A stretch of 64,000 nt of DNA from a phage, in NCBI GenBank assembly GCA_037574385.1, contig GCA_037574385.1_4529.1. One strand, written 5' to 3'. The position numbers and the translations under genes are program-made. Every line of letters begins with the position of its first letter. The stretch's first letter is position 1. Under the pieces are notes generated by a model. That model was not told the DNA's origin and made no database searches. It saw only the letters and a list, made by a program, of their open reading frames with translations. This document shows, piece by piece, positions 1 through 17,693 of this stretch.

Positions 1-33
1 GCTCATGCAATATATTGAATTTGCACGATCTTG

Positions 34-1006: not shown

Positions 1007-1108
1007 AACCCCAAACCTATCGAAAATATCGAATCTAGAATATAAAAACATTCATTTTTTTAAATGTTCCGTGTCGGGTACTGTCTACCAAAACAGAGGA
1101 GATAACAA

Positions 1109-1696: not shown

Positions 1697-1704
1697 CGAA
1701 AAAA

Positions 1705-1730
1705 AGCGGAAGAGGTCGCCCTCTTCCGCT
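1705..1730. terminator. Bidirectional rho-independent terminator between convergent eamB and grcA
   Basis: Perfect hairpin agcggaagagg-tcgc-cctcttccgct flanked by A-run and T-rich sequence. Confidence 0.6.
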
Positions 1731-1751
1731 TAGTAACTTGCTACTTAAGCC

Positions 1752-2114: not shown

Positions 2115-2120
2115 ATAACC

Positions 2121-2429
2121 TCAATTAGAAAATAAATTTATCCAAGTTTTTTCTTTAATCAAAAATGGGTCGGAATTAAACGCCATTAAACTTTGAGTGA
2201 TTAATCCCTTAAATGGTCCATCAATAAATTCCATTTTGAAATGTGGAATACTAGTCATCAGTCGTGCATTAGGAGCAGTACAAAGAACCTGCTGCCCTGC
2301 GAACGGTCCTTTAGTCAAACGATATCGTTTAGGTTTAAAATGGTAAATCTCGTAATTTTCTACAAGGGCCCTTTTATTGCATACTGGGCTGTTATAACAA
2401 TACTCAAAAACTTCAATAGTGGTCATCAT
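2121..2429 (-). CDS. Hypothetical phage protein (102 aa; start at MMTTIEV, ATGA overlap with upstream stop)
   Basis: ORF in early-gene orientation; start overlaps stop of 2426..2965 (translational coupling). Confidence 0.45.
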   Translation of the reverse strand: MMTTIEVFEYCYNSPVCNKRALVENYEIYHFKPKRYRLTKGPFAGQQVLCTAPNARLMTSIPHFKMEFIDGPFKGLITQSLMAFNSDPFLIKEKTWINLFSN

Positions 2430-2965
2430 TGCATTCCAATCACAAAAAATTGAGGACGAGCAATACCGCCGTTGCAATATTTGCTTTTACAGCAGTGTTG
2501 GACTGTTTTAATATGGACATTGTAAATCTTATCCATATCAGGAGCTTTAATAGGCTCGTCAATTATATACAGAATACGAGAAAGCGTTAATCCACGGAAT
2601 TTAGAACCTTCATTGCCAATAAAACTACGAACAGAATCAGTAAATAAACGGAATCGAATATCGTCGCTAGAATAACGAGAAAATTCTTTTTTAATGTTGC
2701 CAACAGAAATTTTAGCATAAGCTGAAGTATTAGAAAGAACAATAACTGTTCCACCATCATACAGCCAATTAACAGCAAAATTAGTTACTGCAGTTGATTT
2801 ACCTGATTGTCTGCCGCCGTCTAAACGAAGTGTACAGTACTGCTTGAGTACATCTTCAAATGGTGGGACATAACCGTTCTTACAAATTTCTTCTACTCTA
2901 GCATCAGAATGGTGTGTAAAAGCATTCATCAGGGATAGATAAGGTCCAGTTAAAAACGTTCTCAT
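2426..2965 (-). CDS. P-loop NTPase of unknown function
   Basis: Walker A GGRQSGKST and Walker B-like ILYIIDEP. Confidence 0.55.
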   Translation of the reverse strand: MRTFLTGPYLSLMNAFTHHSDARVEEICKNGYVPPFEDVLKQYCTLRLDGGRQSGKSTAVTNFAVNWLYDGGTVIVLSNTSAYAKISVGNIKKEFSRYSSDDIRFRLFTDSVRSFIGNEGSKFRGLTLSRILYIIDEPIKAPDMDKIYNVHIKTVQHCCKSKYCNGGIARPQFFVIGMQ

Positions 2966-3138
2966 TTAGTTTCTCTTAAGGTTGGGGCCATTCCATGGCA
3001 CATGTTAGGTCCTTCGACTCACTATGTAAACCCATTACCGCACTTGGGCTCGACCTTATTACAGGTTGGAAAAGGTACATCACTCAGAGGACTCGACGTT
3101 CATGAGGAGAGGTTGCGTTTCCCTTTATTAGGCAAGAA

Positions 3139-3468
3139 TTATACTCTAGGCTTTTGAGCTTGTTTGGTATTGGATTCCCACGCTGCTTTGGTAATTTTGT
3201 TAGCGGCATAGCCAAAGGCATTAGATAGAACACCTTTAGAGTTGAATACATCCAATCCAATAAGTACACCGGCTGCGTTAAATTTAGGAGCAAAGTACGC
3301 ATTAGTTTTAGAAAGAGCTTTTTTCAATTCAGGGTCTTGAACCAAGCCATCAAAAACGCCTTTACTATTTACTTTATATGTTACTTTGGGATTTTTACCT
3401 TCTTCGATAGCAGCTTTCTGTTCCGCAGATAATGTAACTTCAGTGATAAACTCTTGATATGTTTTCAT
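3139..3468 (-). CDS. Capsid-targeted internal protein candidate (CTS-bearing), 109 aa
   Basis: N-terminus MKTYQEFITE matches the T4 internal-protein capsid-targeting sequence (MKTYQEFIAE). Confidence 0.6.
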   Translation of the reverse strand: MKTYQEFITEVTLSAEQKAAIEEGKNPKVTYKVNSKGVFDGLVQDPELKKALSKTNAYFAPKFNAAGVLIGLDVFNSKGVLSNAFGYAANKITKAAWESNTKQAQKPRV

Positions 3469-3509
3469 ATGTTTCCTTTAAATGTAAATAGGCCTAAGTA
3501 TAGGCCTTA

Positions 3510-4088
3510 TTAATTACCACGGGCTGCATTAGCAACGGCGTAAGCGTACTGAACATTAGCGTCTTTAAACGTACCTTTAGAGGTATCTATTTCTGCCTTA
3601 AAGCCGCCTTTAGCCATAACATCGGCAAATTCTTTACGGAAAGCCATTGCGTCAAGACCTTTCCATGATGATTTATGCTTGGCAAATTCAAGACCAGCGT
3701 AGTTGACAGCTTTAGCCAATTTATTATCAATGACCCATTTACCTGCTTTAGGCACAAACTTCGGGCCTTTTTGTTTAGAGAACAGTTTTAAATTCCAGCG
3801 ACGAAGGTCACTGTCGGCTTTAACAAAAGCTGCGTCTAAGTTACTAGCAACAACATCTTCAATATGAGCAAATTTAAGACCATCAACTTCAATATTTAGA
3901 TCGTTACGCCAGCGAAGTCCTTCCCAAGCGAAGGCTTTAAAGTCGGAAGCCTTTGTAGCTAAGTACCGTTCAATAGGAGCAGTTTTAGGGTCAAAGCCGT
4001 TTCCGCCACGATAATTCCACTCGTCCTTATTAATGCCTTGGACTTTTCCTGCAAAGGCCTCGGCGATAAATTCTTTATATGTTTTCAT
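3510..4088 (-). CDS. Capsid-targeted internal protein candidate, 192 aa (size of T4 IPIII); start at internal MKTYKEFIAEA
   Basis: CTS MKTYKEFIAE preceded by RBS AAGGAAAC; ORF-track ORF extends 14 codons upstream. Confidence 0.6.
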   Translation of the reverse strand: MKTYKEFIAEAFAGKVQGINKDEWNYRGGNGFDPKTAPIERYLATKASDFKAFAWEGLRWRNDLNIEVDGLKFAHIEDVVASNLDAAFVKADSDLRRWNLKLFSKQKGPKFVPKAGKWVIDNKLAKAVNYAGLEFAKHKSSWKGLDAMAFRKEFADVMAKGGFKAEIDTSKGTFKDANVQYAYAVANAARGN

Positions 4089-4153
4089 TTTTGTTTCCTT
4101 GTTTGTTTTGATAGAGTAATTATACCCCATATTAATACTTAAGCGTAAACAAT

Positions 4154-4414
4154 TTAAGCTTTACCGCCAGAAATAATTCCGAAGTTGTTAAAATCGTATC
4201 CAATATCGTCAGCATCTACTTTAGGGCTTGCTACAACATAAGCAATTTCACGACGTTTTGCATAGGTGTTGATTTCTTTACCATCGCCACCTAAGAAAGA
4301 ATACCCATTACGTTTTAATGAGCCAAAGTCTTCGGCATCACCAACGAAAGCTTTAACTTTAAATTTGGGGTCTTTGGCATCTGCTTCAGTGATAAATTCT
4401 TGATACATTTTCAT
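4154..4414 (-). CDS. Capsid-targeted internal protein candidate, 86 aa; start at internal MKMYQEFITEA
   Basis: CTS-like N-terminus MKMYQEFITE with RBS AAGGAAAAA; immediately downstream of denV. Confidence 0.6.
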   Translation of the reverse strand: MKMYQEFITEADAKDPKFKVKAFVGDAEDFGSLKRNGYSFLGGDGKEINTYAKRREIAYVVASPKVDADDIGYDFNNFGIISGGKA

Positions 4415-4421
4415 TTTTTCC

Positions 4422-4835
4422 TTAGTAAATTGATTTACCATAGTATTTGTACCAAGTCGGACGTTGAGCAATTTTTTCATCTAAGCGTGCTTGACTTATC
4501 GCAATGGACGCTTCGGACGGGACATAATTATTACGAAATTCGGCAGGGATGTCGGAAATATCCTGGACTGTCGTGTCCTTTATTTTGAAACCACGTTTCA
4601 AACATTCAGCGATTAGCTCGATTTGACGTAAACGTAAAAATTCGAGTTTGTCATAAAAGAATGTTACGTGACCTGTGCCTAAGATAAATGTTGGAGAGAT
4701 TTTAAAATCTTTTACACGTTTACCGTTTTGGACATGTTTACGGACTGCACCAAATACGCGTGGTAATTCACGATACTCAGCCATAAGATGTTGGTCGGTC
4801 AGTTCAGAAACAAGTGTTAAATTGATACGAGTCAT
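4422..4835 (-). CDS. denV: Endonuclease V (pyrimidine-dimer DNA glycosylase/AP lyase), start at MTRINLTLV
   Basis: Near-identical over full length to T4 DenV as recalled ([12 protein letters not shown]...[10 protein letters not shown]); RBS GGAGGAAATT. Confidence 0.9.
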
Positions 4836-4863
4836 AATTTCCTCCAAGTAGTTGATAGATGTA

Positions 4864-4893
4864 TAGTATCAAAACCCTTGGAGGAAGTAAACA
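4864..4893 (-). promoter_or_regulatory. T4-type early promoter (-35 GTTTAC, N18, extended -10 TGnTACTAT) upstream of denV
   Basis: Minus-strand GTTTAC...TGATACTAT in the 58-bp gap upstream of denV. Confidence 0.5.
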
Positions 4894-5175
4894 CTATTTT
4901 TCTGAAGCGCCTGAAATATATTTTTCAAGACGTTGTTTCATCAGCGAGCCGTTCTTAGCGATTTCTTCCGGTTTATCGCACATACGCAACAAGGCTTCAA
5001 GCTTAACGATATCGCTGGTACGTTCAAATTTGCGAGTATCTATCTTACTAGCAAGTTCAGAAATACGTGCTAATAGACTTTCAGCTTCAACCAAAGCTGC
5101 ACCTAGCTTAGTTGCAAATGTGTCAGTAGCTTCGTTAAGAATAGATTCTGATAAAAATTCACTATATGTTTTCAT
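4894..5175 (-). CDS. Capsid-targeted internal protein candidate, 93 aa; start at [10 protein letters not shown]
   Basis: CTS-like N-terminus; its ATG overlaps the TGA stop of gene e (ATGA coupling); sits at the T4 ipII/ipIII position. Confidence 0.6.
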
Positions 5176-5660
5176 ATATACGCTTTCCAAGTTCCTGTTT
5201 TAAATGTTGAGATTACGCGTTTCGCACGATTAGGTGTCTGACGATACCATTTAGATTGGGCTAGATTTACTGCCGCTTCATCCCAACGTTTCTGTTGAAG
5301 CATACGAAGAGAATTAGTAAAACCAGCAACGCCTGCTACACCCATTTGGAAGACCATATTGACTAATGCACATCGACGAACCGCGTCTAAAGAATCATAC
5401 ACTGGTTTAAGTTTAGCATTACCCAAGATTCCACGAACGGCTTTATCAACATCTTCATTAAATAGCTTTTCAGCCTCATCAAGGGTAATTGTACCGTTGC
5501 ATTTACGACCGATCATTCTATCAAGTTCAGCTTTAGCTACGGCTAAAGACGGGTTCTTTGTTACCAAATGGCCTATGCCAATAGTCCAAAAGCCTTCGGT
5601 GTCTTTGTATAAAGACAGTCTAAGACCTTCGTCATTACGAAGCATTTCAAATATATTCAT
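5172..5660 (-). CDS. e: Phage lysozyme (endolysin, T4 gene e), start at MNIFEMLR
   Basis: Collinear high identity with T4 lysozyme as recalled ([27 protein letters not shown]...[31 protein letters not shown]). Confidence 0.95.
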
Positions 5661-5694
5661 AATACCTCCCACGTTTATAGGAGGTATTTATTAC

Positions 5695-6153
5695 TTATAG
5701 GATGGTAGTGAGCACCTTATATAATGATTTGCCCATCACATATTCCCATTGAGAAGGTTTAATTAAAGCGAATGCATCAAATTCAGGAATCTGTCGTCCG
5801 TCCGGGAATGTATGATAGGAATTACAAACACTGTTTCTGAATTGCTCGTGCTCTACAGGGATGGTATATTGGAATAGATGAATATTCTTATTGTCTGAGT
5901 AATGATGTTCACCTAGGTCTTTCAGGAAGGCAGGGTCATATTGTGTAAACCCAGTTTCTTCTTCGCATTCACGAATAGCGGCTTCAATAGGAGATTCGCC
6001 AGGTTCGACGCGGCCTTTAGGAATATCCCACCGATGAGCTAAAGAACCTTTAGGACGAGAACCAGTTACACGGCCCATGAATAATTCTTTATCTTCGGTA
6101 AGGAAAATAATACCGGCTGATAGTTCTTTCACTTTATTTTTCTTACTCATCAT
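5695..6153 (-). CDS. nudE: Nudix hydrolase (T4 NudE/e.1-like)
   Basis: Nudix box GRVEPGESPIEAAIRECEEETG; directly downstream of e as in T4. Confidence 0.85.
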   Translation of the reverse strand: MMSKKNKVKELSAGIIFLTEDKELFMGRVTGSRPKGSLAHRWDIPKGRVEPGESPIEAAIRECEEETGFTQYDPAFLKDLGEHHYSDNKNIHLFQYTIPVEHEQFRNSVCNSYHTFPDGRQIPEFDAFALIKPSQWEYVMGKSLYKVLTTIL

Positions 6154-6379
6154 CTCGGTCCCATGATTTGGCCATTAATTCGGACATAAATTCTTCAATG
6201 CGTGTTTCTTTAGATGGACTTTCACTATTAGAGACCGCAAGTTTGTAATCTGCAATAGGACGGAACAAATCAAGGTCCATATTAAGATCGTCTTTGATTT
6301 TTTCTTCTGACACATCTTTATCATATGTGTACAGATAACTATCACACGATTCTGATTTAATGTAAATTGCTATACTCAT
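6143..6379 (-). CDS. Hypothetical small acidic protein (start at second ATG, SD AGGAA)
   Basis: ORF with RBS; ATG overlaps upstream stop. Confidence 0.4.
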   Translation of the reverse strand: MSIAIYIKSESCDSYLYTYDKDVSEEKIKDDLNMDLDLFRPIADYKLAVSNSESPSKETRIEEFMSELMAKSWDRDDE

Positions 6380-6867
6380 CTCAAATTCCTGCATTCGGTA
6401 ATAAAACGTTCAACTTCATTATTCTTGGCCTTTATCTTGTCTTTACGTTCCTGTAAACTACTTTTAACAAGATTAATAATGATGCCTATAGTACCTCCAC
6501 CAATAATACCACCAATAATACTTACGATAGTAGATGCTAATAATATAGCGATAATATCTGGTATGGCAAAGGCACTTACTTTAGTACTAAAAAACCATAC
6601 CGACGGTACAAATATAATCCATCCTGTTATCCATTGGCACTTATTGAAAAACTTTTCAAGCTCAGCTTGAGTTGTTCGTATTACTTCATCGATAGGTTGA
6701 TATCCATTAATGTATCTGTTCACGATAATACCTGCTGGTTGGTCGATTTTAAATTCTTGACAAATACGTTTCACTAAGTAGGATGGACATCCTGTCCAAT
6801 CTACTGAATAGTACGAAATACCTTCATTACCGTCGTCTATATTAGACCAATATGTTTTGTTAATCAT
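6376..6867 (-). CDS. Hypothetical membrane protein (163 aa)
   Basis: Long hydrophobic, Gly/Ile-rich segment WITGWIIFVPSVWFF...IVSIIGGIIGGGTIGIIINLV. Confidence 0.5.
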   Translation of the reverse strand: MINKTYWSNIDDGNEGISYYSVDWTGCPSYLVKRICQEFKIDQPAGIIVNRYINGYQPIDEVIRTTQAELEKFFNKCQWITGWIIFVPSVWFFSTKVSAFAIPDIIAILLASTIVSIIGGIIGGGTIGIIINLVKSSLQERKDKIKAKNNEVERFITECRNLR

Positions 6868-7553
6868 TACCAGCCTTCCATAGGGAATTCCAGATAAACT
6901 TGAGCATTGACACGAATTTCATTGGTAATCTTTTTAACTCGGTCTGTATTACGAGATACACGTCCGAACCAACGCCATCCATTACTAATTGCACGAGAAC
7001 CAGTGTGCCATGTTTGCCAATCAAACTGAAGAAGAGTACGGTCTGGAGCTTCCCATTTCTCTAGTTCACCTTTTTCAATTTTTTCGAGGACTTCTTTGTG
7101 CCACTGGCGATAGATAAGTTCGCCATCAGGAATCTGACTGAACTCTGCAGTTCCTGTTGCAAAATGAGTAGGACACACGTCAGCGTTAACAAGGCCAAGA
7201 ATATGTTCAGACAAATAGCGAGGATTGTCATAATCAGGTTGTCCTGCAGTAATAAAATGTTGACCAACCGGAATATCCGGACGTGGTACATCGTCATGGT
7301 GATAACCTGGGATAGCAGGGTACCAACCAGGCATCAGCATGTGGACTCGTGAATCAAATACTACATCCGAGCCTTTCCAATCGTCAGGGAGATTTTGGAT
7401 AAAGCTACGAGTAATTGGACCGCCGTTATCCCAAGCAAAACTCAAATCACAGTTAAAGAACATTTGTTCATTTTTGATTTGGTCATTTTGTACGTTATGA
7501 GCAAAACCACCTACTGCACGAGCTTGACTATTAAACACTTTAGAACTATTCAT
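6867..7553 (-). CDS. Hypothetical protein (228 aa), no recognisable motif
   Basis: Long ORF in hyperplastic region; His/Asp-rich patches (HHDD, PTHFATG). Confidence 0.5.
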   Translation of the reverse strand: MNSSKVFNSQARAVGGFAHNVQNDQIKNEQMFFNCDLSFAWDNGGPITRSFIQNLPDDWKGSDVVFDSRVHMLMPGWYPAIPGYHHDDVPRPDIPVGQHFITAGQPDYDNPRYLSEHILGLVNADVCPTHFATGTAEFSQIPDGELIYRQWHKEVLEKIEKGELEKWEAPDRTLLQFDWQTWHTGSRAISNGWRWFGRVSRNTDRVKKITNEIRVNAQVYLEFPMEGW

Positions 7554-7554
7554 A

Positions 7555-7860
7555 TTATTTTCCTCGGCATTCTTTAATGAAATTTTCTAGATTGGTAGAT
7601 TCAATAGCTTTTTTACGAGCTTCTGCATGTTCTTCTTCAGACAATTTACATTTATAATTAACCCAGACGTTATGGTCAAAACTAGTCGTGGCATATAATA
7701 ACAAAGCCCCGACGAATAATAAAAATGGTGATAAGAATACAAAACCAGGAACACCATCCATATTGTAAGCCTTTTGTAATACTGCAACAGAAAGAGCTGC
7801 ATAAAAAGGCGATGCAAATATTGTAAAAAGACCAATTCGGTTGGTTTCGCCTAATTTCAT
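7555..7860 (-). CDS. Hypothetical small membrane protein (101 aa)
   Basis: Two predicted TM helices; RBS GAGGAGAAT; follows an early promoter. Confidence 0.5.
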   Translation of the reverse strand: MKLGETNRIGLFTIFASPFYAALSVAVLQKAYNMDGVPGFVFLSPFLLFVGALLLYATTSFDHNVWVNYKCKLSEEEHAEARKKAIESTNLENFIKECRGK

Positions 7861-7888
7861 AATATTCTCCTCATGTTTTAATAGGACT

Positions 7889-7918
7889 ACTATAACATAG
7901 TCCTATAATTGTGTAAAC
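7889..7918 (-). promoter_or_regulatory. T4-type early promoter embedded in a 9-bp inverted repeat (PeSL-like cassette)
   Basis: Minus strand GTTTAC-N18-TGTTATAGT; -10 lies within palindrome ATAGGACTA..TAGTCCTAT; near-identical copies at ~9184 and ~15870. Confidence 0.55.
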
Positions 7919-7930
7919 GGTTTTGTGAAA

Positions 7931-8887
7931 TTATTTGAAAGGTTTTACCATATGGAAATTTTGTTTGAAACGTTTGACGTAATCATCATGTCCTAAGCTT
8001 TGGTACATACTTACAACTTTGCTGTAGTTTTCCCAAGCATACTCACGGAACCAACCAGAGGTGATGCTTGTACAGACTTTTTCCAATGCCATCATAAAAC
8101 TGGCTTCAGGGTTAATTTTAAAGTCATTAGGAATCTGAGAACGTTCTAATGCTAGTACACATGATTCTTCGTATACACCGGCCAATTTGACCATTTCTGG
8201 TAATGATTCGAACTTCTCGCGTGAGGTCATGACTTCAGAACCATCTTTCATGTAAAATGTATAAGCCGGACGGTCTGTTAGTGCAATGGCTTCGTGAATA
8301 GTATCATGGTCATACGTATAGATGTCATCTTTAAAGAATGCGCTTTTAGAAGTGTCAAGAACTGGGTGAGCATAGTTCAAGGTTTCTTTCTGGCGTTTCA
8401 GCATAATTTCAGTAAGTTCATCGTTCAGTGTAACACCTTTACCACGAAGATACTGAATATGGTTCATAGTCTTTAAAAAGAATGGATTATTTTTCTTGAA
8501 ACGATGAGACATCTTAATTGCAAGACACATCTCAGGAGTTGCCCAGTAAAACCCGTTCAAACGGTCTTTAGTCAAATTTTTCTTGGCGTATTTTAAAAGG
8601 TCATAAGAAGACGTGAAATCTTCAGGAGTGAGTTCACCGACTAATTCACGGACATTAGTGATTGCCGGAACAATATACGCTTCAAAATGAGTTTCGCGTC
8701 CATTATGGAAGCATTTGAAAACTTGGACATCAGGGTTATCTTGGTGGACATATACACCCATCATTTGATTTTTGAATGTATTCCAAGAACCTTGGTCCGC
8801 AATAAAGTCCCAATCGCTATTTTTGATAGCGCTAGAATCAATAAGGCCATGATAGTGAAGTGCACGAGAACCAATAACTAACATCAT
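7931..8887 (-). CDS. Hypothetical protein (318 aa)
   Basis: Long ORF, no motif recognised. Confidence 0.5.
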   Translation of the reverse strand: MMLVIGSRALHYHGLIDSSAIKNSDWDFIADQGSWNTFKNQMMGVYVHQDNPDVQVFKCFHNGRETHFEAYIVPAITNVRELVGELTPEDFTSSYDLLKYAKKNLTKDRLNGFYWATPEMCLAIKMSHRFKKNNPFFLKTMNHIQYLRGKGVTLNDELTEIMLKRQKETLNYAHPVLDTSKSAFFKDDIYTYDHDTIHEAIALTDRPAYTFYMKDGSEVMTSREKFESLPEMVKLAGVYEESCVLALERSQIPNDFKINPEASFMMALEKVCTSITSGWFREYAWENYSKVVSMYQSLGHDDYVKRFKQNFHMVKPFK

Positions 8888-8915
8888 AATATTTTCCTCT
8901 GATTAATTCATTAAC

Positions 8916-9167
8916 TTAAATTTCACGACATGCGATATCATATTCATCCCAGAGGTCATCATGTGAAGCCTCTACCAATGGAACGATTGTACCGTTTATG
9001 TCTTCATTATAAGGACAAATTGTACAGTGCGCATCTTCGAATCGGATGCCTTTGTGTTCAGATTTTTTATAACGTATATCGAATATCTTTGCAAACTTTT
9101 CACGACTAATAGTTTTAGCAACTACTTCGGTTCCGATACTTTCGTAATAAATCATTGTGGACTCCAT
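8916..9167 (-). CDS. Hypothetical small protein (83 aa)
   Basis: ORF directly downstream of an early promoter. Confidence 0.45.
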   Translation of the reverse strand: MESTMIYYESIGTEVVAKTISREKFAKIFDIRYKKSEHKGIRFEDAHCTICPYNEDINGTIVPLVEASHDDLWDEYDIACREI

Positions 9168-9183
9168 TTAATTTGATAGGACT

Positions 9184-9213
9184 ACTATAACATAGCCCTA
9201 TCTTGTTGTAAAC
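9184..9213 (-). promoter_or_regulatory. T4-type early promoter within palindromic cassette
   Basis: GTTTAC-N18-TATAGT on minus strand; palindrome gataggactactataacatagccctatc. Confidence 0.55.
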
Positions 9214-9217
9214 TGTT

Positions 9218-9415
9218 TTAGCAAGAATAACTAGATGATACCCAGCCTTGAACAGTAATACTATTATTGGATAATGAGATCGCGTCCTGGAGATTCAGAC
9301 CTGCGTTATCTTCAATCCACAATGTAACTTCTTCGCGTTCTTCTGTTGCAATTTGGAACAGGTTTTCCAGAGCAGCTACTGCCGTACGTACAGCACAATC
9401 TAATTCACGAGACAT
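9218..9415 (-). CDS. Small protein, member 1 of a tandem paralog triplet (65 aa)
   Basis: C-terminus ...TVQGWVSSSYSC shared with the next two ORFs. Confidence 0.5.
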   Translation of the reverse strand: MSRELDCAVRTAVAALENLFQIATEEREEVTLWIEDNAGLNLQDAISLSNNSITVQGWVSSSYSC

Positions 9416-9424
9416 ATGATTTCC

Positions 9425-9697
9425 TTAACAAGTGTGAGAAGATGCAACCCAACCACCATCTTCAAGGCTCAGGTTGTAGTCGTATTGGTAAACGTCAGCC
9501 CATTCAGCCTGGCCGTTTTTTGTACAACGTTCAAGATCGGCTTTAAGATGTCCTGGTGAATGATAGGTTCCACCCATGCCATAAGCTGGATACAAGTCGA
9601 ATGTTGTGTTTTGTTTATTAGCAATTTCTTTGGCAGCCTCAATAGCTGCATAGATTTTTGCTACGGCTTCAGCCAGTTCGGTTTGTTCTTTAGACAT
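9425..9697 (-). CDS. Small protein, member 2 of tandem paralog triplet (90 aa)
   Basis: C-terminus ...DGGWVASSHTC; N-terminus MSKEQTELAEA. Confidence 0.5.
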   Translation of the reverse strand: MSKEQTELAEAVAKIYAAIEAAKEIANKQNTTFDLYPAYGMGGTYHSPGHLKADLERCTKNGQAEWADVYQYDYNLSLEDGGWVASSHTC

Positions 9698-9706
9698 AAT
9701 GATTCC

Positions 9707-10012
9707 TTAGCACAACGCAGAAGACGAAACCCAAGCACCTTCAGTAATAACGTAACCATTACCTTCACGCTTAACGTCGCCACCATTATTTTCAATTTCA
9801 TCTTTCATCCACTGGGATACGATTTCACCCTTAGGATAATAAGTACGACCGCTACCATAATCACCTACAGAAAATGATACGGCGTATTGGTCTGCGATCT
9901 TTGTTGCTTCTTCTTCGATACGTTCAGCTTGATTCAGAAGTTTATAAATTGCATCTGAAGCGGATTTGGCATCATTAAACTCTGGTACTTTAATTTCAAT
10001 AATCTTACTCAT
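9707..10012 (-). CDS. Small protein, member 3 of tandem paralog triplet (101 aa)
   Basis: C-terminus ...EGAWVSSSALC; N-terminus MSKIIEIKVPE. Confidence 0.5.
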   Translation of the reverse strand: MSKIIEIKVPEFNDAKSASDAIYKLLNQAERIEEEATKIADQYAVSFSVGDYGSGRTYYPKGEIVSQWMKDEIENNGGDVKREGNGYVITEGAWVSSSALC

Positions 10013-10071
10013 TTTCTACATTCCTTAATAAAGTTTTCGATTGTTTCATTTTCACGTCTAGCTAGGAGTTC

Positions 10072-10101
10072 ATTATAACTAATCATTTGAGAAGCGTAAA
10101 C
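10072..10101 (-). promoter_or_regulatory. T4-type early promoter (GTTTAC-N18-TATAAT) upstream of the paralog triplet
   Basis: Consensus -35 GTTTAC and perfect -10 TATAAT on minus strand in the 10013-10110 gap. Confidence 0.55.
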
Positions 10102-10110
10102 AGCATAAAT

Positions 10111-10503
10111 TCAGTTCAGGCTTTTGCATCTTATTTCCTTAACGAATTCCATAGCTTCTTCATATTCATACTTTTTAACAGCTTCATCATACTGAGCTTG
10201 GGCTTTTGCGCACTGAACTTTCCATTCTCTTAATCGGGCTCTGTGATGACGGCCTTGGTGCCAATATCCTACCCAATTAATAGGCATTAATAAAAACGGT
10301 ACAATAAGTGGTGCGACGAACATTAATGAAAACGCTGCATCAGACGATATAACTTTATTGGAATCTAAAATAGCTCCTATAATCATAAAGATTAAAAATG
10401 CTAAAGCTAAAATAGGACCAAATAGTACTTCATTTGGGATTAATTTACGCTTGTATTCATACGCCCAGGGCTTACTTGGCATGTATAGGGTTGGCTTTGA
10501 CAT
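10111..10503 (-). CDS. Hypothetical membrane protein (start uncertain; ORF-track ORF extends to 10533)
   Basis: Two hydrophobic helices (ILALAFLIFMIIGAIL, FSLMFVAPLIVPFLLMPI). Confidence 0.45.
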   Translation of the reverse strand: MSKPTLYMPSKPWAYEYKRKLIPNEVLFGPILALAFLIFMIIGAILDSNKVISSDAAFSLMFVAPLIVPFLLMPINWVGYWHQGRHHRARLREWKVQCAKAQAQYDEAVKKYEYEEAMEFVKEIRCKSLN

Positions 10504-11095
10504 ATTCTCTACATTCCATAATAAATTGCTCAAGGATTAAATTGTTAGTGAAATTAGGACTAACAACCATGGTTTCATAAAGAGCATCAATAGCACTTAA
10601 AGCATCAACTCTTTTAAGCAAAGGCTTGCCTTCATACATAGTTTCAGAATCGACGATTAACGTAAAGTAATATTTTTTGTTATCGACTAGAACTTCAGTA
10701 TCGATATAAAACATGTTAGACCTTAAGAGCTTATCTCTAAAACCATAATAATCTTCAGAGCGTTCGCTGATATATTCCCATTCGGTGTTTAAACAACAAA
10801 CAGACCACGTAGGAGCAACGAAATCAGTGAATCTAATATCATGGTCTGCAACTAGTTTAGCAATAGCTCCGATATCATGAATCATAATACCTGGGGCTAA
10901 TAAAGATTTTCTGCTATGGCTAGCCGTTTTCTCAGTTGTCTCATAAGAAGACGACCAGTACCATTTACGTCCAGTTGCAACATATCGTAATGAATCAACT
11001 AAAGACGTAGGTGGATTTACCTTATCTCGGAACTCTTCGAACATTGAGTCAATATCATTATTTTGGTTTCGCATGTTAACTCCTTTATTATCCAA
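10472..11095 (-). CDS. Hypothetical protein (207 aa)
   Basis: ORF with RBS AAGGAG; preceded by terminator hairpin. Confidence 0.5.
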   Translation of the reverse strand: MDNKGVNMRNQNNDIDSMFEEFRDKVNPPTSLVDSLRYVATGRKWYWSSSYETTEKTASHSRKSLLAPGIMIHDIGAIAKLVADHDIRFTDFVAPTWSVCCLNTEWEYISERSEDYYGFRDKLLRSNMFYIDTEVLVDNKKYYFTLIVDSETMYEGKPLLKRVDALSAIDALYETMVVSPNFTNNLILEQFIMECREYVKANPIHAK

Positions 11096-11097
11096 AA

Positions 11098-11115
11098 GGA
11101 GGACCGGAGTCCTCC
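11098..11115 (-). terminator. Intrinsic terminator-like hairpin (GGAGGAC-UCCG-GUCCUCC + U-run)
   Basis: Perfect 7-bp stem followed by UUUU on the minus-strand transcript, just after stop of 11124..11732. Confidence 0.5.
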
Positions 11116-11123
11116 GTATTATT

Positions 11124-11732
11124 TTATTTCAAAGAGTTAATATATTCTTGTACATCAGCAGAAGTGGTTTCAACACCGGCTGGAGCGCCATTGAATGTTT
11201 CAACGCGAGTCAGAGTGTCTTCGATATCAACCTTAGTCAGTGCAGCAATTTCAATTACATCATCAGCCGTAGAGATACCAAGAGCATTGGCTGCTCGAGT
11301 TTCGCGGATGTATTCAAGTTTGATTGCCAGGTTCTGACGAGCATCGTCAAGTTCAACCACCTTACGAGCAATTTCAATTCGCATAGCGGCATACCCGTCA
11401 GCTTTTGTATTAAGTTGTTCGGCGGTTCGACGATACAGAAGTCCAAGCTTAGCATGCATGGTAACATCTTGTCCTTCAGCCAGGAGCTTACGAATTTCAC
11501 GTTCCTTAGAAGCGGCTTGCTTGTTCTTTTCATTAACAAGTTCGCGAATACGTTTTTCTTCATTAATAGATTTAATAGAAGCCGTTTTTAGTTCTTTGAT
11601 TTGGGTAATCAACTTATCTGCGGCTGCGTTATACTGTTCTTCGACAGTCAGATTTTTAGCCATAGCAGTACCCAGTTTAGTGCGAATGAATTCAACAAGT
11701 TTCTTCAGTGTGTTCATATTATTACCTTTCAA
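11124..11732 (-). CDS. Coiled-coil protein, possibly PspA/IM30-like (202 aa)
   Basis: Highly charged heptad-rich sequence ([43 protein letters not shown]); fold assignment is a guess. Confidence 0.45.
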
Positions 11733-11787
11733 TTGGTGGTTTATTATCCAACGAGAGCATTATACTCTGCTCTCAAGAGTTTGTAAA

Positions 11788-12015
11788 TTATTTTTTAATC
11801 AAATTGACATAAAACTTGGCGTCTTCTGGGTGCATGCCTTCGCAATATTCTTCAACCATGAACTTCTTAACAGCTTCATAAGGACCACTCAGATTAAGCT
11901 CAGTTGTCCAGAACTTGGAATCTTGGACTGAATCGATACGAACTTCAGGGTGTCGGTTGCGAATAACTTCTTCGGTGTATTCATAATCAACGACATCAAT
12001 ACTAACTTTAGCCAT
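11788..12015 (-). CDS. Hypothetical small protein (75 aa)
   Basis: ORF with RBS GAGGAGAAA preceded by the promoter/5'UTR module also found at ~48620. Confidence 0.45.
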   Translation of the reverse strand: MAKVSIDVVDYEYTEEVIRNRHPEVRIDSVQDSKFWTTELNLSGPYEAVKKFMVEEYCEGMHPEDAKFYVNLIKK

Positions 12016-12044
12016 TTTGTTTCTCCTCTGTAGTTGATAAGTCT

Positions 12045-12074
12045 ATAGTATCACCATCCTTGGTGTTTGTACAT
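12045..12074 (-). promoter_or_regulatory. Early-promoter-like element (TGATACTAT extended -10; divergent -35)
   Basis: About 30 bp identical to the cassette upstream of 48344..48613 (gtagttgataagtctatagtatcac). Confidence 0.4.
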
Positions 12075-12082
12075 CATTATTT

Positions 12083-12388
12083 TTAATTTTTCCAACTTAA
12101 CAACTTGTAGTGTCCTTCATTCGTACGAGGTTTATCCCAAGAAATACTAATATATGATTCACTGTCAATAGAAGTCGCCGGGTTTTTCTCTACCGTAAGA
12201 CCTTCACTTTCCAGCCATTCAATAGTGTTTGCGCATAAATCTGAAGAACACCTCATCGGAAACTGGCAAGATTTTTCACCTTTAGCTGCAGCATTATACA
12301 TCTTTTCTAAAATACGCTTTTGCACGTTTTTAAAAATAGTTTCAGCAGATTCTTCAGATTTTTTATTCAGTTCAGTGTAAAGACTCAT
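12083..12388 (-). CDS. Hypothetical small protein (101 aa; start at MSLYTEL with SD GAGGAG)
   Basis: ORF; ORF-track ORF extends 9 codons upstream. Confidence 0.45.
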   Translation of the reverse strand: MSLYTELNKKSEESAETIFKNVQKRILEKMYNAAAKGEKSCQFPMRCSSDLCANTIEWLESEGLTVEKNPATSIDSESYISISWDKPRTNEGHYKLLSWKN

Positions 12389-12445
12389 AATATTCTCCTC
12401 ATTAATAGGGCTCATAATATCTCAATCATAAGCCCATGTACGCAT

Positions 12446-12721
12446 TTATTTCATATTATCGAAATATTCTTCAGCGATTTCGACATTATCATGGTAAACT
12501 TTAGAAGACAGTTTAACATAACCTTCTGCTGCGAACATATTAATCACAACCTTTACAGTATACCATTGTCCGTCTTCATTACCCATTACTGCGTAAGTTT
12601 CAAACATCGGATGGTCAGGTCCAATAACTTTAATATCATTCACCGTACGTCCGAAATCTTCTGGAATGCATTTCATAAAGAAGTTGAACAGTTCACCGTA
12701 ATTATCCATTTCATTCTCCAA
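12446..12721 (-). CDS. Hypothetical small protein (91 aa)
   Basis: ORF downstream of an early promoter. Confidence 0.45.
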   Translation of the reverse strand: MENEMDNYGELFNFFMKCIPEDFGRTVNDIKVIGPDHPMFETYAVMGNEDGQWYTVKVVINMFAAEGYVKLSSKVYHDNVEIAEEYFDNMK

Positions 12722-12751
12722 GGTTTTTCTGTATCGGTAGTTGATAGTTGT

Positions 12752-12781
12752 ATAGTACCACGGAAGAACAGGGATGTAAAC
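12752..12781 (-). promoter_or_regulatory. T4-type early promoter (GTTTAC-N18-TACTAT)
   Basis: Minus-strand motif; same cassette family as ~4864 and ~48644. Confidence 0.5.
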
Positions 12782-12883
12782 AGTTTTGTGAAAAAAATTT
12801 TTAAAAAGTTTTGGGGAATTCTAGGACAGGGAGAGGAAAGGCCTAGATACCAAAAAGCCCTATCTAAATGATAGGGCTTAAAA

Positions 12884-13447
12884 TTATTTACCTAGTTTAG
12901 TTATTATAGCTTCGGCAGCAGCTTTTAGCTTAGATGCAGTGTTAATACGATTTTTAATTTCGGTATACGCATCGCCAAGAACATCAAGGCTATCAGAATA
13001 AACACTTACACTATTGCGTTCGCTATTTGAAATAGAACCTTTAGTTTTACGATCAAAATCAGTGTACACGTCTTGAAGATCACGGGCTGCCTTCTTTGCA
13101 TCATCCAATGCGTCAAGAGCTTTATTCAAAGCATTGACATATTTTTTAGTGTCAAACATATTCTTAGAAATTTTAACAGGTGCACGTTCAGGAGTAGCTA
13201 AGGCGGATTTAGGAACCTGTGTGCCAGCTGCCAGTTTCTTAGAAATTTTGAAAAACGCTTTATTGAAACTATTTTCTTGACTCATCGTAAAAGAACTAGT
13301 ATCGATGTTATACATTTCAATAGCTTTAGCTTTCCACTTAAGAAAATCGCCACGGTCTTTTGGATCCAAGTTGAAGAATACTTTAGTAAGATCTGCTTCA
13401 GATGGTAATTTTGCTGCTTCGGTTAAAAATTCGGCATAGGTTTTCAT
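12884..13447 (-). CDS. Capsid-targeted internal protein candidate (187 aa) beside the tRNA cluster
   Basis: N-terminus MKTYAEFLTEA (CTS-like); Lys/Ala-rich. Confidence 0.55.
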   Translation of the reverse strand: MKTYAEFLTEAAKLPSEADLTKVFFNLDPKDRGDFLKWKAKAIEMYNIDTSSFTMSQENSFNKAFFKISKKLAAGTQVPKSALATPERAPVKISKNMFDTKKYVNALNKALDALDDAKKAARDLQDVYTDFDRKTKGSISNSERNSVSVYSDSLDVLGDAYTEIKNRINTASKLKAAAEAIITKLGK

Positions 13448-13531
13448 TTAAAATCCTTGAAATAATTTATCGGTTTGTTATTAATTATTTATTACTTTGG
13501 TATTATCAGTAACAGCATTCTCTGAGTGATT

Positions 13532-13564
13532 CAAACTAAAAAGCCCCAACCTTTCGGAAGGGGC
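13532..13564 (-). terminator. Rho-independent terminator closing the tRNA/stable-RNA cluster
   Basis: Minus-strand hairpin GCCCC..CC-GAAA-GG..GGGGC followed by UUUUUAGUUU. Confidence 0.6.
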
Positions 13565-13617
13565 TAAGCCTTGCGGCAACCTTGTCGGGGTTCCACCTGC
13601 TAAGGCAAGTGTTTGTA

Positions 13618-13708
13618 CGAAACGCCGGGATTCGAACCCGGTTATTAAGCAGTTGACGCTACTCAATATTTTTAAAAGGCCATATCTCGACCATATCCGA
13701 ACGTTCCG
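13618..13708 (-). ncRNA. tRNA-like or small stable RNA (canonical T-arm; no clean cloverleaf found)
   Basis: Minus-strand CCGGG-UUCGAAU-CCCGG T-arm and a pairable 7-bp acceptor-like stem 91 nt apart; D and anticodon arms not resolved. Confidence 0.25.
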
Positions 13709-13876
13709 TCAAAAACGCTACTCGGCTTACGGCAAAGATATTTCCTCGAATCGATAATTCTGTGCGCCGTTTCTGCTGTGATGTAAGGGGATATTAACAA
13801 ATCGTAAAGATTTATTAAGACCAGTCCTTACTCAGGGAACATCAGTCCGACGACTTGCCGGTAGCGACCCGGCTTC

Positions 13877-14221
13877 TTATTTTGACATATCATCAATTTG
13901 TTCTCTACGTCTACGCCATAGATTAATTACTTCATCAACACATTCAGCGTTTGATATATGACGGCAATAATATAATGATTCGCGTTTCTGGAACCGATGT
14001 TGCAATGGGATTTCGTTTAAAAGGTCTTTACGGTCAAAGTATTCAAAACTAGTTAACCCGGAACGATTTTTAATGAACTTCCAATGACCGAATTCATTTT
14101 GAACATAGATGTAATCGGCATGTTGATAAAGTGAATTAATCAATCGGTCTGAAATAACTGTATCATGTTCGTTAAAATAAAACGTTAAATCATGAACTAC
14201 TAAATAGACATTACCTTTCAT
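13877..14221 (-). CDS. Hypothetical protein embedded in the tRNA cluster (start at MKGNVYLVV; ORF-track start would overlap tRNA-Arg)
   Basis: ORF between tRNA-Arg and the stable-RNA region; no nuclease motif recognised. Confidence 0.4.
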   Translation of the reverse strand: MKGNVYLVVHDLTFYFNEHDTVISDRLINSLYQHADYIYVQNEFGHWKFIKNRSGLTSFEYFDRKDLLNEIPLQHRFQKRESLYYCRHISNAECVDEVINLWRRRREQIDDMSK

Positions 14222-14239
14222 ATTTTCCTCACTTATAAT

Positions 14240-14316
<77 letters not shown>

Positions 14317-14322
14317 AATATA

Positions 14323-14396
14323 TGACCCAGACCAGATTCGAACTGGTAACCTTTCCCTTATGAGGGGACTGCTGCTAACCGTTGAGCTACAGGGCC
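14323..14396 (-). tRNA. tRNA with anticodon CAU (Ile2-type or Met), CCA not encoded
   Basis: Acceptor GGCCCUG/CUGGGUC (one U-U mismatch), anticodon loop CUCAUAA, T-arm ACCAG-UUCGAAU-CUGGU; lies 6 nt upstream of tRNA-Arg. Confidence 0.55.
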
Positions 14397-14475
14397 TAAA
14401 TAACTTTCTATTATGAAAGGCACTTTAGAGCACCTTTGGTAATAGAGGGTATGAATTAATAATATCACATAATTC

Positions 14476-14991
14476 TTAAAGCAAATCAATCATTTTAACA
14501 GTCGGCAAAACGATTTCTTCTTCAATATAAGCAAATTCAACACATTCGACTACACGCAAGAAATCATAATCATAATATTCAGAAGCATGGCCAAGAATAT
14601 CAATGAGACCTTCTGATACTAAATATCCATTCTCACGGAACAGGTCAAATACACGTGATTCATCTTCTTCAGATTTATTACCGAGGTCGACTTCAATATC
14701 AAAGACCTTTTTAATGAATTCTGGATAAAGCTGGTCTGAGAACAATCCTTCAACCAAGTATTCATAGATTAAAAGCGAGCAATCACTGAATGGTGTATTA
14801 CCACAGTAACGTTCAGCTTTAGTGCTAGAATGACGACTCTTAAATTTCTTCAAAAGATATTTAAACTGTTGGAGCTCATGCTCTTCCACTTCAAACAATG
14901 TTTTGGTTTTATAGTTGTCACCATCATTTTCATAGGTAGTGACATCAATTACATAACCCTTAGGAATTGTACTGCCTAAACAAATATTCAT
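14476..14991 (-). CDS. Hypothetical acidic protein (171 aa)
   Basis: ORF; Glu/Asp-rich. Confidence 0.45.
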   Translation of the reverse strand: MNICLGSTIPKGYVIDVTTYENDGDNYKTKTLFEVEEHELQQFKYLLKKFKSRHSSTKAERYCGNTPFSDCSLLIYEYLVEGLFSDQLYPEFIKKVFDIEVDLGNKSEEDESRVFDLFRENGYLVSEGLIDILGHASEYYDYDFLRVVECVEFAYIEEEIVLPTVKMIDLL

Positions 14992-14995
14992 TTAC

Positions 14996-15286
14996 TCACC
15001 GCACCATATTAATGTAATTATATTCAATACAACGTAATTTCAAAGGATTCTTGAAAATATTGTATTCAAGAGGGCCTTTTTCTGTTTCAATAAAGAAATC
15101 AAAGTTAACTGTGTTAAATTTACCGTCTTCACAGAGTAATTTAACTTGCGAAGATGAACGGTCGATATAAACCTTTTCAACCTCAAAGTTAGTCAGAATA
15201 CCATAGTCATTAACTAGTGCTTTAGCTGCACGTTGATCGCTTTCGTATCCATTCTCAATAGATGACACTTTAGCATAAAGAATCAT
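14996..15286 (-). CDS. Hypothetical protein (96 aa)
   Basis: ORF; ATGA overlap with upstream gene. Confidence 0.45.
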   Translation of the reverse strand: MILYAKVSSIENGYESDQRAAKALVNDYGILTNFEVEKVYIDRSSSQVKLLCEDGKFNTVNFDFFIETEKGPLEYNIFKNPLKLRCIEYNYINMVR

Positions 15287-15645
15287 GAATGTTCCACCAC
15301 TTCAAAGGTATGAGCATCAACAATATGATACCAGTCAAAATTTTCTTCTGCGTTTTTATAAATTTCGCGAAGAGCCTCAACAGTTTTTCCTGTAGCAACA
15401 AGGTCGTCAATACCACCAAGAGGATAACAGTCATAACCAGCAAACAGAAGGAAATTAATAGTTTCTGTAGGTTCTGGATGCAGAACTCCATTATCGTCTA
15501 CCACTTCAAAGAAAGTGTAAGAAGGAGTATAAGTTTTAATCCAGGCCCATGCTTGTGCTGCTGAATCAAATGGCCTGCGTATCAAACGACAATCATGGTC
15601 TTTAGAAGGATTTGCTTCAAAATCCGCATATACGTGATATTTCAT
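15283..15645 (-). CDS. Hypothetical protein (120 aa; start at MKYHVY, SD AAGGTGAG)
   Basis: ORF with RBS. Confidence 0.45.
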   Translation of the reverse strand: MKYHVYADFEANPSKDHDCRLIRRPFDSAAQAWAWIKTYTPSYTFFEVVDDNGVLHPEPTETINFLLFAGYDCYPLGGIDDLVATGKTVEALREIYKNAEENFDWYHIVDAHTFEVVEHS

Positions 15646-15646
15646 T

Positions 15647-15853
15647 TTACTCACCTTTTGCAATTTTATCCATAACGATAGCGATTAAGCCGATTAGAAA
15701 TGCTACTACCAATGAGATAGAATTTTCGGTTGTTGTCAGTAGTCCACAAATGAATCCTACAAACATCGAAAAACTAAAAGCCATTGAAGCAATTACTACA
15801 GCAACATTACGAATCAGTTCAGCGCGTTTCATTTTATTTCTCCATTTACTCAT
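15647..15853 (-). CDS. Hypothetical small membrane protein (68 aa)
   Basis: Two hydrophobic helices; follows an early promoter. Confidence 0.45.
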   Translation of the reverse strand: MSKWRNKMKRAELIRNVAVVIASMAFSFSMFVGFICGLLTTTENSISLVVAFLIGLIAIVMDKIAKGE

Positions 15854-15869
15854 TTCGTTTTGATAGGAC

Positions 15870-15899
15870 TACTATAACATAGTCCTATCAGCATGTAAA
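15870..15899 (-). promoter_or_regulatory. T4-type early promoter within palindromic cassette
   Basis: GTTTAC-N18-TATAGT; palindrome gataggactactataacatagtcctatc, identical to the copy at ~7881. Confidence 0.55.
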
Positions 15900-15903
15900 C
15901 TAC

Positions 15904-16191
15904 TTACAGAAGAGTTTTTGCAATAATTTTAAGCTGAGCTACAGAAATATGCTTAGCTTTAAACAGTGCAGTCTCTTCAGCCGGAGAGATAACAATAGTA
16001 GCGCCGTCTTTCTTAGCAGACCATCCATCCCCTAAGTAAACAGTACCTTTTACTTCTTCGCCATCAACCAGACTAATCATTGGTTTACCCTCACGTCCTT
16101 TATTTGCTTTAATAACTTCAGAAGTAAGGGTTGCTTCGGTCAGAGTAGAAACGTTAGCAACAGGTGATATAAATTCTTTATAGGTTTTCAT
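15904..16191 (-). CDS. ipI: Internal protein I (IPI-like; in T4 an inhibitor of GmrSD type IV restriction)
   Basis: 95 aa, CTS MKTYKEFIS; central region matches recalled T4 IPI (SEVIKANKG.EGKPMISLVDGEE.KGTVYLGDGWSAKKDGATIVISPAEETALF); beside 57B as in T4. Confidence 0.75.
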   Translation of the reverse strand: MKTYKEFISPVANVSTLTEATLTSEVIKANKGREGKPMISLVDGEEVKGTVYLGDGWSAKKDGATIVISPAEETALFKAKHISVAQLKIIAKTLL

Positions 16192-16225
16192 TTTATTTCC
16201 TTGAGGTTGTTTATTTGATAGGATG

Positions 16226-16255
16226 ATAGTATCACACCATCATCCTTATGTAAAC
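16226..16255 (-). promoter_or_regulatory. T4-type early promoter upstream of ipI
   Basis: GTTTAC-N18-TACTAT; variant palindrome ggatgat..atcatcc. Confidence 0.5.
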
Positions 16256-16268
16256 TGTTTTGTGAAAA

Positions 16269-16954
<686 letters not shown>

Positions 16955-16958
16955 TTTA

Positions 16959-17693
16959 TTACCTTAAGATTTTTTCAATTTTAGAATAAAGCTCTTCTAA
17001 CGAGCCGTCGTTTGTAATAACTAAGTCGCCTTCTTCAATAGGCAACCCAGCTTCTGTAATATGTTTATCAGTGGATTCCGTACCAGAGCGAACCACATGA
17101 ATAACTGTAGCACCCATCGCTCTAGCAGTTTCCATTTCATGGACTTGACGTGTATCGGTTACAACATAGTAATCGAAATCACTTCCAATATAATCCATAT
17201 AGTTTAATGCAAAAAGCTTAACCCAATACATACGGTCAAATAAATTAACGACAACATCCGTACCGAGGGCTTGCATAAGACGGCGGATCGACCATGTGTC
17301 GTTGATATTATTTATAGCTTCACGCAGGGCTTCGTATGGTTTAATATCTAGATATGAATATCCACCTTCTAATGATGATAATATGTTAACACCATTAATT
17401 GGTAGGTATTGTCGTTGTAAATAAATTAGCGTTTCTTCCATTAATTCAATAACATCCAATTTATTGAGATTTAATGGTGTTTCACGGTCGTATCCAATGC
17501 CTTCAAAGTATTCATATTTCAACTCGGTGAATACATCAGGGTTTTCGGCATGTTTACGCTCCCAAGCTATTGCTAGAGCGTCTTTAATTGGATATGCTAA
17601 TTGATATTTTATGGATTTAAAGTTTGAATTGATGTAATCAGCAGTAGTGTCTTTACCACTACGTTTGATGCCGCTTAAAAAGATTAGCTCCAT
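16959..17693 (-). CDS. 1: gp1 deoxynucleoside monophosphate kinase
   Basis: P-loop SGIKRSGKDTTAD; long matches to recalled T4 gp1 (DRMYWVKLFAL, ARAMGATVIHVVR, ITEAGLPI..GDLVITNDGSLEEL). Confidence 0.9.
   Translation of the reverse strand: MELIFLSGIKRSGKDTTADYINSNFKSIKYQLAYPIKDALAIAWERKHAENPDVFTELKYEYFEGIGYDRETPLNLNKLDVIELMEETLIYLQRQYLPINGVNILSSLEGGYSYLDIKPYEALREAINNINDTWSIRRLMQALGTDVVVNLFDRMYWVKLFALNYMDYIGSDFDYYVVTDTRQVHEMETARAMGATVIHVVRSGTESTDKHITEAGLPIEEGDLVITNDGSLEELYSKIEKILR

Follow-up and report, generated by a model that had tools for sequence, protein, structure and literature searches.

The question raised by this locus is whether a phage of the T4 type encodes a membrane-stress protein of the PspA/IM30 (Vipp1) kind, and what such a protein could do during infection. 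It concerns an open reading frame on the minus strand of the window, by which we mean the whole 64,000-nt stretch of phage DNA analyzed here. An earlier note on this DNA, made from the sequence alone, had drawn attention to the frame, and its claims are taken up below together with the results that bear on them.

In the ORF listing, the frame spans positions 11124..11732 of the minus strand and would encode 202 aa if read from TTG. This was the length given in the earlier note. The open reading frame is real, but the TTG reading is only its mechanical maximum, and translation almost certainly begins at the ATG at 11717, for a protein of 197 aa. This start was preferred because the homologs are all about 197 aa long, with an N-terminus of the form M-x-x-L-K-K, because the e.6 coding sequences annotated in RB69 and T4 measure 594 nt each, and because the TTG overlaps a Shine-Dalgarno-like GAAAGG (Table 1).

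The DNA around the gene is 99.1% identical to that of Shigella phage ESh27 and 97% identical to that of RB69, which identifies the window as DNA of an RB69-like Mosigvirus. The matching gene in phages of the RB69 group carries the annotation e.6, and the open reading frame is gene e.6 of this RB69-like (Mosigvirus) T4-type phage. According to the RB69 annotation, e.6 belongs to a cluster of small genes flanked by e and the tRNA genes, and it is labelled “hypothetical” in both the T4 and the RB69 records. The sole strong match of the single protein was to phrog_1203, a family with no assigned function (E 1e-86). The statement in the earlier note that a phage protein of this kind is not associated with T4 needs correction in one respect, since T4 itself possesses the ortholog, with 88% protein identity. 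T4 e.6 has an equal length, occupies the slot between e.5 and e.7/frd.3 and has a like layout of promoter and hairpin; the upstream neighbour is e.7 in T4, whereas it is a frd.3-like gene in this phage and in RB69.

Table 1. Positions of gene e.6, its putative expression signals and the predicted elements of its product (all on the minus strand; residues are numbered from the ATG)
Feature	Position	Strand	Basis
Sigma-70 early-type promoter-like site: -35 TTTACA (11787-11782), 17-nt spacer, -10 TATAAT (11764-11759)	11759..11787	-	consensus scan
Shine-Dalgarno-like GAAAGG, 7 nt before the ATG at 11717	11725..11730	-	read from sequence
e.6 coding sequence, 197 aa and TAA stop	11124..11717	-	ORF listing, RB69 annotation, T4 identity, phrog_1203
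Helix a0, residues 2-22, cationic amphipathic, predicted membrane-binding element	11652..11714	-	AF2, hydrophobic moment, alignment to Vipp1/PspA a0
Predicted helix a1, residues 25-80, first arm of ESCRT-III-type hairpin	11478..11645	-	AF2 (pLDDT 86-98), in-register Vipp1/PspA alignment
Predicted helix a2/a3, residues 86-145, second hairpin arm	11283..11462	-	AF2, alignments, per-column conservation
a4 region, residues 151-175 (helix broken), low to medium model confidence	11193..11267	-	AF2, hhalign
Predicted helix a5, residues 186-196, motif D188-[VIL]-x-x-Y192-[LI]-x-x-L196	11130..11162	-	AF2, conservation
Intrinsic-terminator-like hairpin GGAGGAC-UCCG-GUCCUCC, then UUUUGG	11098..11115	-	sequence scan and folding

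Taken alone, the e.6 protein matched neither PF04012 nor any other Pfam family, even at E<=10, nor any NCBIfam model, including those for PspA and LiaH; BLASTP against E. coli PspA likewise returned no match. The missing direct match to PF04012 is a detection limit and not a structural feature. With a profile built from 31 close relatives (A1), Vipp1 chains of the PDB were matched in register but at an E-value of about 1; in hhalign, this profile reached a probability of 4% against the PspA alignment. Since A1 reaches these values only, the homology rests on a more diverse alignment and on intermediate sequences. A profile search of 1.84 billion representative proteins recovered 45 relatives, of which the full-length ones are all about 200 aa long. 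The diverse alignment (A2), to which distant relatives were added, contains 38 members with identities down to 16%.

When A2 was used in an hmmsearch of 177,635 PDB sequences, Synechocystis Vipp1 (sll0617) was the first match (E 8.3e-5), and the two aligned in register, 1-146 against 1-147. Vipp1/PspA-family chains made up nine of the ten best matches, the remaining one being a prefoldin chain. Individually, five of the 38 A2 members matched PF04012 (PspA_IM30), and two of them did so in register and above the gathering cutoff of 33.9 bits (P0063 with 39.0 bits and P0057 with 35.1 bits). Both of these proteins match the A1 profile of e.6 (E 9e-17 and 3.5e-20, respectively), and the gene for P0063 lies in a T4-like contig together with UvsX and a DnaB-like helicase. 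The 25 families that the 38 members matched most often did not include Snf7 (PF03357).

The comparison of A2 with an alignment of PspA and Vipp1 in hhalign gave a probability of 91.9% (E 7e-7) over 169 columns, 3-180 against 1-173. The PspA alignment is shallow, with 39 enterobacterial sequences and one Vipp1 fragment, because, in the best 120 homologs listed, identity to E. coli PspA never fell below 86%. Reversing either alignment, a control that keeps composition and periodicity, lowered the probability to 0.8–1.0%, so the similarity depends on direction and is not an artefact of coiled coils. Against E. coli PspA as a single sequence, A2 reached 29.5%, with a0-a1 only aligned. Matches to Rz/LysB spanins (E 0.02-0.03) were rejected as coiled-coil noise, and neither a signal peptide nor a lipobox was seen on reading the protein.

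We therefore consider it very probable that the e.6 protein is a homolog of the PspA family. The earlier note had proposed the PspA/IM30 assignment tentatively, with a profile–profile comparison as its check, and the hhalign result, the match of A2 to Vipp1 and the two relatives above the Pfam cutoff all speak for it. The divergence is nonetheless large. With E. coli PspA, the e.6 protein shares about 10% of its residues, and its 197 residues compare with 222 in PspA, a difference of about 25 residues, whereas the profile alignment between the two remains in register over about 170 residues; PspA belongs to PF04012, while the e.6 protein itself stays below the Pfam threshold. Vipp1 is the best match of e.6 both by sequence profile and by Foldseek, and the better profile match to it than to E. 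coli PspA speaks against the gene having been captured recently from an enterobacterial host.

The protein had also been described as charged and strongly heptad-patterned. Indeed, D, E, K and R make up 32% of its residues. The heptad patterning is present in part: the hydrophobic periodicity of 3.5-3.67 residues exceeded that of shuffled sequences in residues 25-80 (p 0.01) and in the whole protein (p 0.006), but not in residues 86-145 (p 0.18).

Structure prediction, the second check named in the earlier note, points in the same direction. The AF2 model obtained with A2 has a mean pLDDT of 81.4, with values of 86-98 along the hairpin, and the model based on A1 is similar; residues 168-180 are poorly modelled. 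In the model, the order of helices (a0, a1, a2/3, a4, a5) is that of PspA and Vipp1, and the feature of the ESCRT-III-type fold, a long a1/a2-3 hairpin followed by a4 and a5, is predicted to be present. In a Foldseek search against the PDB, Vipp1 (7o3w_A) ranked first (E 8.7e-4), and the top 12 comprised nine Vipp1 chains, followed by the archaeal ESCRT-III protein CdvB2 and by PspA (7abk). CdvB2 and Snf7 were weaker structural matches only. Together, the profile and structure comparisons place e.6, highly divergent as it is, in the PspA/IM30/Vipp1 branch of the ESCRT-III superfamily.

Several elements of this fold are conserved within the phage family. The a0 helix of the protein encoded in the window has a hydrophobic moment of 0.43 and a net charge of +3, close to the family means of 0.42 and +2.8; the amphipathicity is marginal against shuffles for this single protein (p 0.08), and 53% of the family members beat shuffles at p<0.1. 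In Vipp1, a0 is positively charged, amphipathic and lipid-binding (PMC11919738); the cationic amphipathic a0 is thus common to Vipp1 and e.6, whereas in PspA this helix is amphipathic but neutral. The a2/a3 arm holds a conserved KLEYIRETR block and a second conserved block of 11 residues. The a4 region was aligned by hhalign to a4 of PspA (DV...RFESFE against DV...RVETFN), and both a4 and a5 are shorter in e.6 than in PspA.

The most conserved position of A2 is G147, followed by L123, Y192, L43, I40 and L196. The nearly invariant G147, located just past a3, is a candidate hinge. In a5, Y192 is kept in 35 of the 38 A2 sequences and L196 in 32. By analogy with Vipp1, in which the a5 residues F197 and L200 form polymer interface 3 (PMC11919738), the likewise hydrophobic pair Y192/L196 is a candidate for an inter-subunit contact. 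The e.6 protein ends at residue 197, one residue past a5, and has no C-terminal extension. In this respect, it resembles PspA, with which it also shares the helix order and which has no C-terminal a6 extension, and it differs from Vipp1, which has a C-terminal domain (a6) of roughly 40 residues (PMC11919738) and a thylakoid context that e.6 lacks.

The signals around the gene suggest that e.6 forms a short early transcription unit with its own promoter and hairpin terminator. The promoter-like site agrees with the sigma-70 consensus at 11 of 12 positions and has an A-rich stretch upstream; it is a consensus match and not a mapped transcription start. A TTTACA/TATTAT pair is found at the equivalent place upstream of e.6 in T4. 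The T4 late-promoter motif TATAAATA does not occur on either strand in positions 1-17308 of the window, nor is it found within 5.6 kb upstream on the e.6 strand. These observations agree with the earlier placement of the frame among early genes.

The terminator-like hairpin begins 8 nt past the stop codon and has a 7-bp stem with five G-C pairs and a 4-nt loop. Its predicted folding energy is -14.4 kcal/mol (z -3.2), and only one of 200 shuffled sequences folded equally well. The terminator noted earlier is thus present; its T run consists of only four T's and e.5 starts 24 nt downstream of the hairpin, so termination ahead of e.5 may be partial. T4 has a hairpin at the same position with a different sequence (GGGGC-UUCG-GCCCC), and in phage PhAPEC2 a feature annotated as “terminator” lies somewhere under the 2.1-kb region that was matched.

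Some further signals were observed in the window. A 7-bp inverted repeat, GAGAGCA-8 nt-TGCTCTC, at 11753-11774 of the minus strand encloses the -10 hexamer of e.6. As RNA, it would fold with about -12.9 kcal/mol (z -3.5); such RNA would arise only by read-through from the upstream frd.3-like gene, and otherwise the repeat would be present just in DNA. No obvious counterpart was seen in T4. Across the whole window, TATAAATA occurs in 18 copies against 8.4 expected, a number that none of 100 shuffles reached; beyond positions 1-17308, which have none, most of the copies lie on the plus strand between 40280 and 62207. This pattern suggests an early-gene block read leftward and a late-gene block read rightward. 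A perfect 10-bp hairpin at 12855-12879 (AAGCCCTATC-5 nt-GATAGGGCTT) is placed between an e.8-like ORF and a 187-aa ORF (12884..13447); it scores as terminator-like on both strands, with TTTTGGTATCT after it on the minus strand and AAAATTATTT on the plus strand.

By tblastn, e.6 was detected in 1104 of 50,697 phage records, with essentially one copy per genome, and the ten most frequent host genera listed are all Enterobacterales or Aeromonas. Structural matches in BFVD include T4-like phages and probably also phages of the Ackermannviridae. When 185,579 species of bacteria and archaea were searched through representative genomes with two peptide patterns taken from A1, no close relatives were found; because only two such patterns were used, this search excludes close relatives only. 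In comparison with T4, e.6 is conserved at 88% identity, against 48% for e.5 and 52% for e.4.

Among the neighbours (e.5, e.4, the frd.3-like gene and a 110-aa ORF), no Pfam matches to PspB, PspC or PspF were found. Bacterial PspA is encoded next to pspBCDE/pspF and is under sigma-54 control, whereas e.6 has neither these neighbours nor this control and is preceded by a phage early promoter-like site. Because of the missing PspB, PspC and PspF neighbours and the sigma-70-type promoter, we regard e.6 as an orphan effector and not as a Psp system.

Downstream of e.6, gene e.5 (10472-11074, minus strand) encodes 200 aa and has no Pfam match, and e.4 (10111-10503, minus strand) encodes a protein of 130 aa that has two hydrophobic segments and, at the C-terminus, a charged helix. 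The gene that follows a PspA_IM30 gene in L003, a distant T4-like contig, encodes an unrelated protein of 186 aa with a hydrophobic stretch at residues 11-26. The idea of e.5 as a conserved partner was rejected, as the downstream gene in L003 has no similarity to e.5. Three tandem ORFs of 65, 90 and 101 aa (9218..9415, 9425..9697 and 9707..10012) occupy positions 9218-10012 of the minus strand and share the C-terminal motif G-x-W-V-[S/A]-S-S-x-x-C (QGWVSSSYSC, GGWVASSHTC and GAWVSSSALC). The three appear to be paralogs and are located in the region of RB69ORF136c-139c.

The PspA homology of this family is not new, having been published in 2021 (PMC7862958) and 2022 (PMC9409062). The genome announcement of Klebsiella phage Metamorpho described gp163 as a homolog of T4 e.6 with an HHpred match of 99.9% to E. 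coli PspA (4WHE_A) (PMC7862958), and gp163 is 62% identical to the protein studied here. Gendre et al. reported that the phrog_1203 member of Kuttervirus SeF3a, gp125, is homologous to PspA and proposed for it an anti-abortive-infection role through protection of the proton-motive force (PMC9409062). Metamorpho gp163 and SeF3a gp125 belong to the same family as e.6. In the jumbo “Jug” phages, a pspA-like gene adjoins terD genes (PMC12363816), and we set it beside e.6 by its description only. A review from 2025 that covers the ESCRT-III-like systems of bacteria and archaea mentions no phage-encoded members.

In the searchable literature, we found no experiments with e.6 or with other PspA-like proteins of phages; for e.6, this holds for membrane binding, polymerisation, expression timing and phenotype. 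The earlier note had reckoned with the outcome that the protein would turn out to be a known T4 e.x product with another role. It is the ortholog of T4 e.6, but another role was not found in the searchable literature.

As to its function, the most likely reading is that e.6 is an effector-only membrane stabiliser that would preserve the proton-motive force during infection. PspA oligomers reduce proton leakage. The induction of host pspA requires transcription dependent on sigma-54 and PspF, which a T4-type phage largely abolishes through its shut-off of host gene expression. Injection, superinfection and several abortive-infection systems damage or depolarise the membrane, and holins trigger prematurely on depolarisation. 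A stable proton-motive force would thus be needed because of injection, superinfection, depolarising abortive infection and premature holin firing. The weak induction of the host psp operon by T4 in comparison with PhiX174 (PMC12795941) is consistent with e.6 serving as a substitute for the Psp response.

The mechanism we propose would proceed as follows. Gene e.6 would be transcribed before replication from its own sigma-70-type promoter, in a unit closed by the hairpin terminator. The a0 helix of the product would bind anionic lipid on the cytoplasmic face of the inner membrane, and a polymer would arise by side-by-side stacking of the a1/a2-3 hairpins, with Y192 and L196 of a5 touching the neighbouring subunit. 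The resulting coat would seal or stiffen the membrane and limit proton leakage. In this way, e.6 would act as a constitutively made substitute for the host Psp response, reduced to the effector, and the phage would benefit from a stable proton-motive force until programmed lysis. We give even chances to this mechanism of membrane stabilisation, and the whole reading, in which e.6 is an early-expressed member of the PspA family that stabilises the membrane, seems to us somewhat better than even.

The strongest alternative is that e.6 acts on host proteins as a mimic of PspA and binds PspF to keep the psp regulon off, poisons host PspA by co-polymerising with it or serves as a decoy for immunity that uses PspA, such as type II CBASS; we regard it as unlikely. 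The a1 region of E. coli PspA contacts PspF, and the homology found by hhalign spans this region; the probable early expression of e.6 is also what many anti-host factors have. In CBASS, PspA holds the cyclase inactive by conjugation, with Cap2 joining the cyclase to PspA (PMC11153139), and the role proposed for the phrog_1203 member, directed against abortive infection (PMC9409062), would fit as well. However, the link between CBASS and PspA comes from a Bacillus system and not from enterobacteria (PMC11153139), and an identity of about 10% to E. coli PspA, with Vipp1 matched better, is unexpected for a mimic tuned to the host. Inhibition of PspF would, moreover, be redundant in T4-type phages, which already shut off host transcription, and the conserved cationic amphipathic a0 argues for membrane contact. 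Somewhat less probable still, in our estimate, is that e.6 is an immune-evasion device, either as a PspA-like polymer shield against depolarising abortive infection or as a decoy, for example for CBASS Cap2.

There is also a slim chance that e.6 is a superinfection-exclusion factor that remodels the envelope and so bars superinfecting phages or lowers adsorption. The T4 genes imm and sp are expressed early, as e.6 appears to be. Furthermore, a truncated PspA of Klebsiella with a gain of function (pspA*) led to fewer envelope components and lower adsorption of phages (PMC12234005), and e.6 is itself shorter than PspA by about 25 residues. The Klebsiella effect, however, came through the loss of capsule over generations and not within a 25-minute infection, and the sequence of e.6 holds no pointer to the periplasm or the outer membrane.

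That e.6 is a generic coiled coil, with a likeness to PspA that stems from composition and heptad periodicity, is very improbable. Such a protein would not be expected to lose the match upon reversal (about 1% against 92% in the true orientation), to keep register from N-terminus to N-terminus over 140-170 residues, or to rank Vipp1 and PspA above nearly all coiled coils of the PDB, with one prefoldin in the top ten; two relatives above the Pfam threshold and the published HHpred value of 99.9% (PMC7862958) also speak against it.

Many homologs of e.6 are named “host specificity protein” in GenBank and UniRef, and one, in Klebsiella phage UPM 2146, is named “tail completion protein”. A virion or host-range role, to which several of these names point, has a nearly negligible probability, since these database names come with no evidence and the early sigma-70-type promoter, the lack of TATAAATA within 5.6 kb upstream, the position in the stretch from e to the tRNA genes, where small early accessory genes lie, and the PspA fold all stand against it. 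As the names do not fit an early promoter and a PspA-like fold, they look like propagated misannotations and should not spread further.

In conclusion, e.6, which we propose to encode an early, effector-only stabiliser of the membrane, is a reasonable target for focused study. In T4, the best-studied virulent phage, the gene still counts as “hypothetical” in the records, and the family is present in single copy in more than 1,100 phage genomes. If an ESCRT-III-type coat is formed, e.6 would offer a tractable system with genetics, synchronous infection and a protein of 197 aa. If e.6 proved to be an immune-evasion device, it would be the first case of an ESCRT-III scaffold used in an anti-defence protein. 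If such a coat is formed, e.6 could also show how a virus profits from a membrane-repair polymer of its own, and it could clarify how the proton-motive force is protected until holin-timed lysis and whether proteins of this kind blunt membrane-targeting defences.
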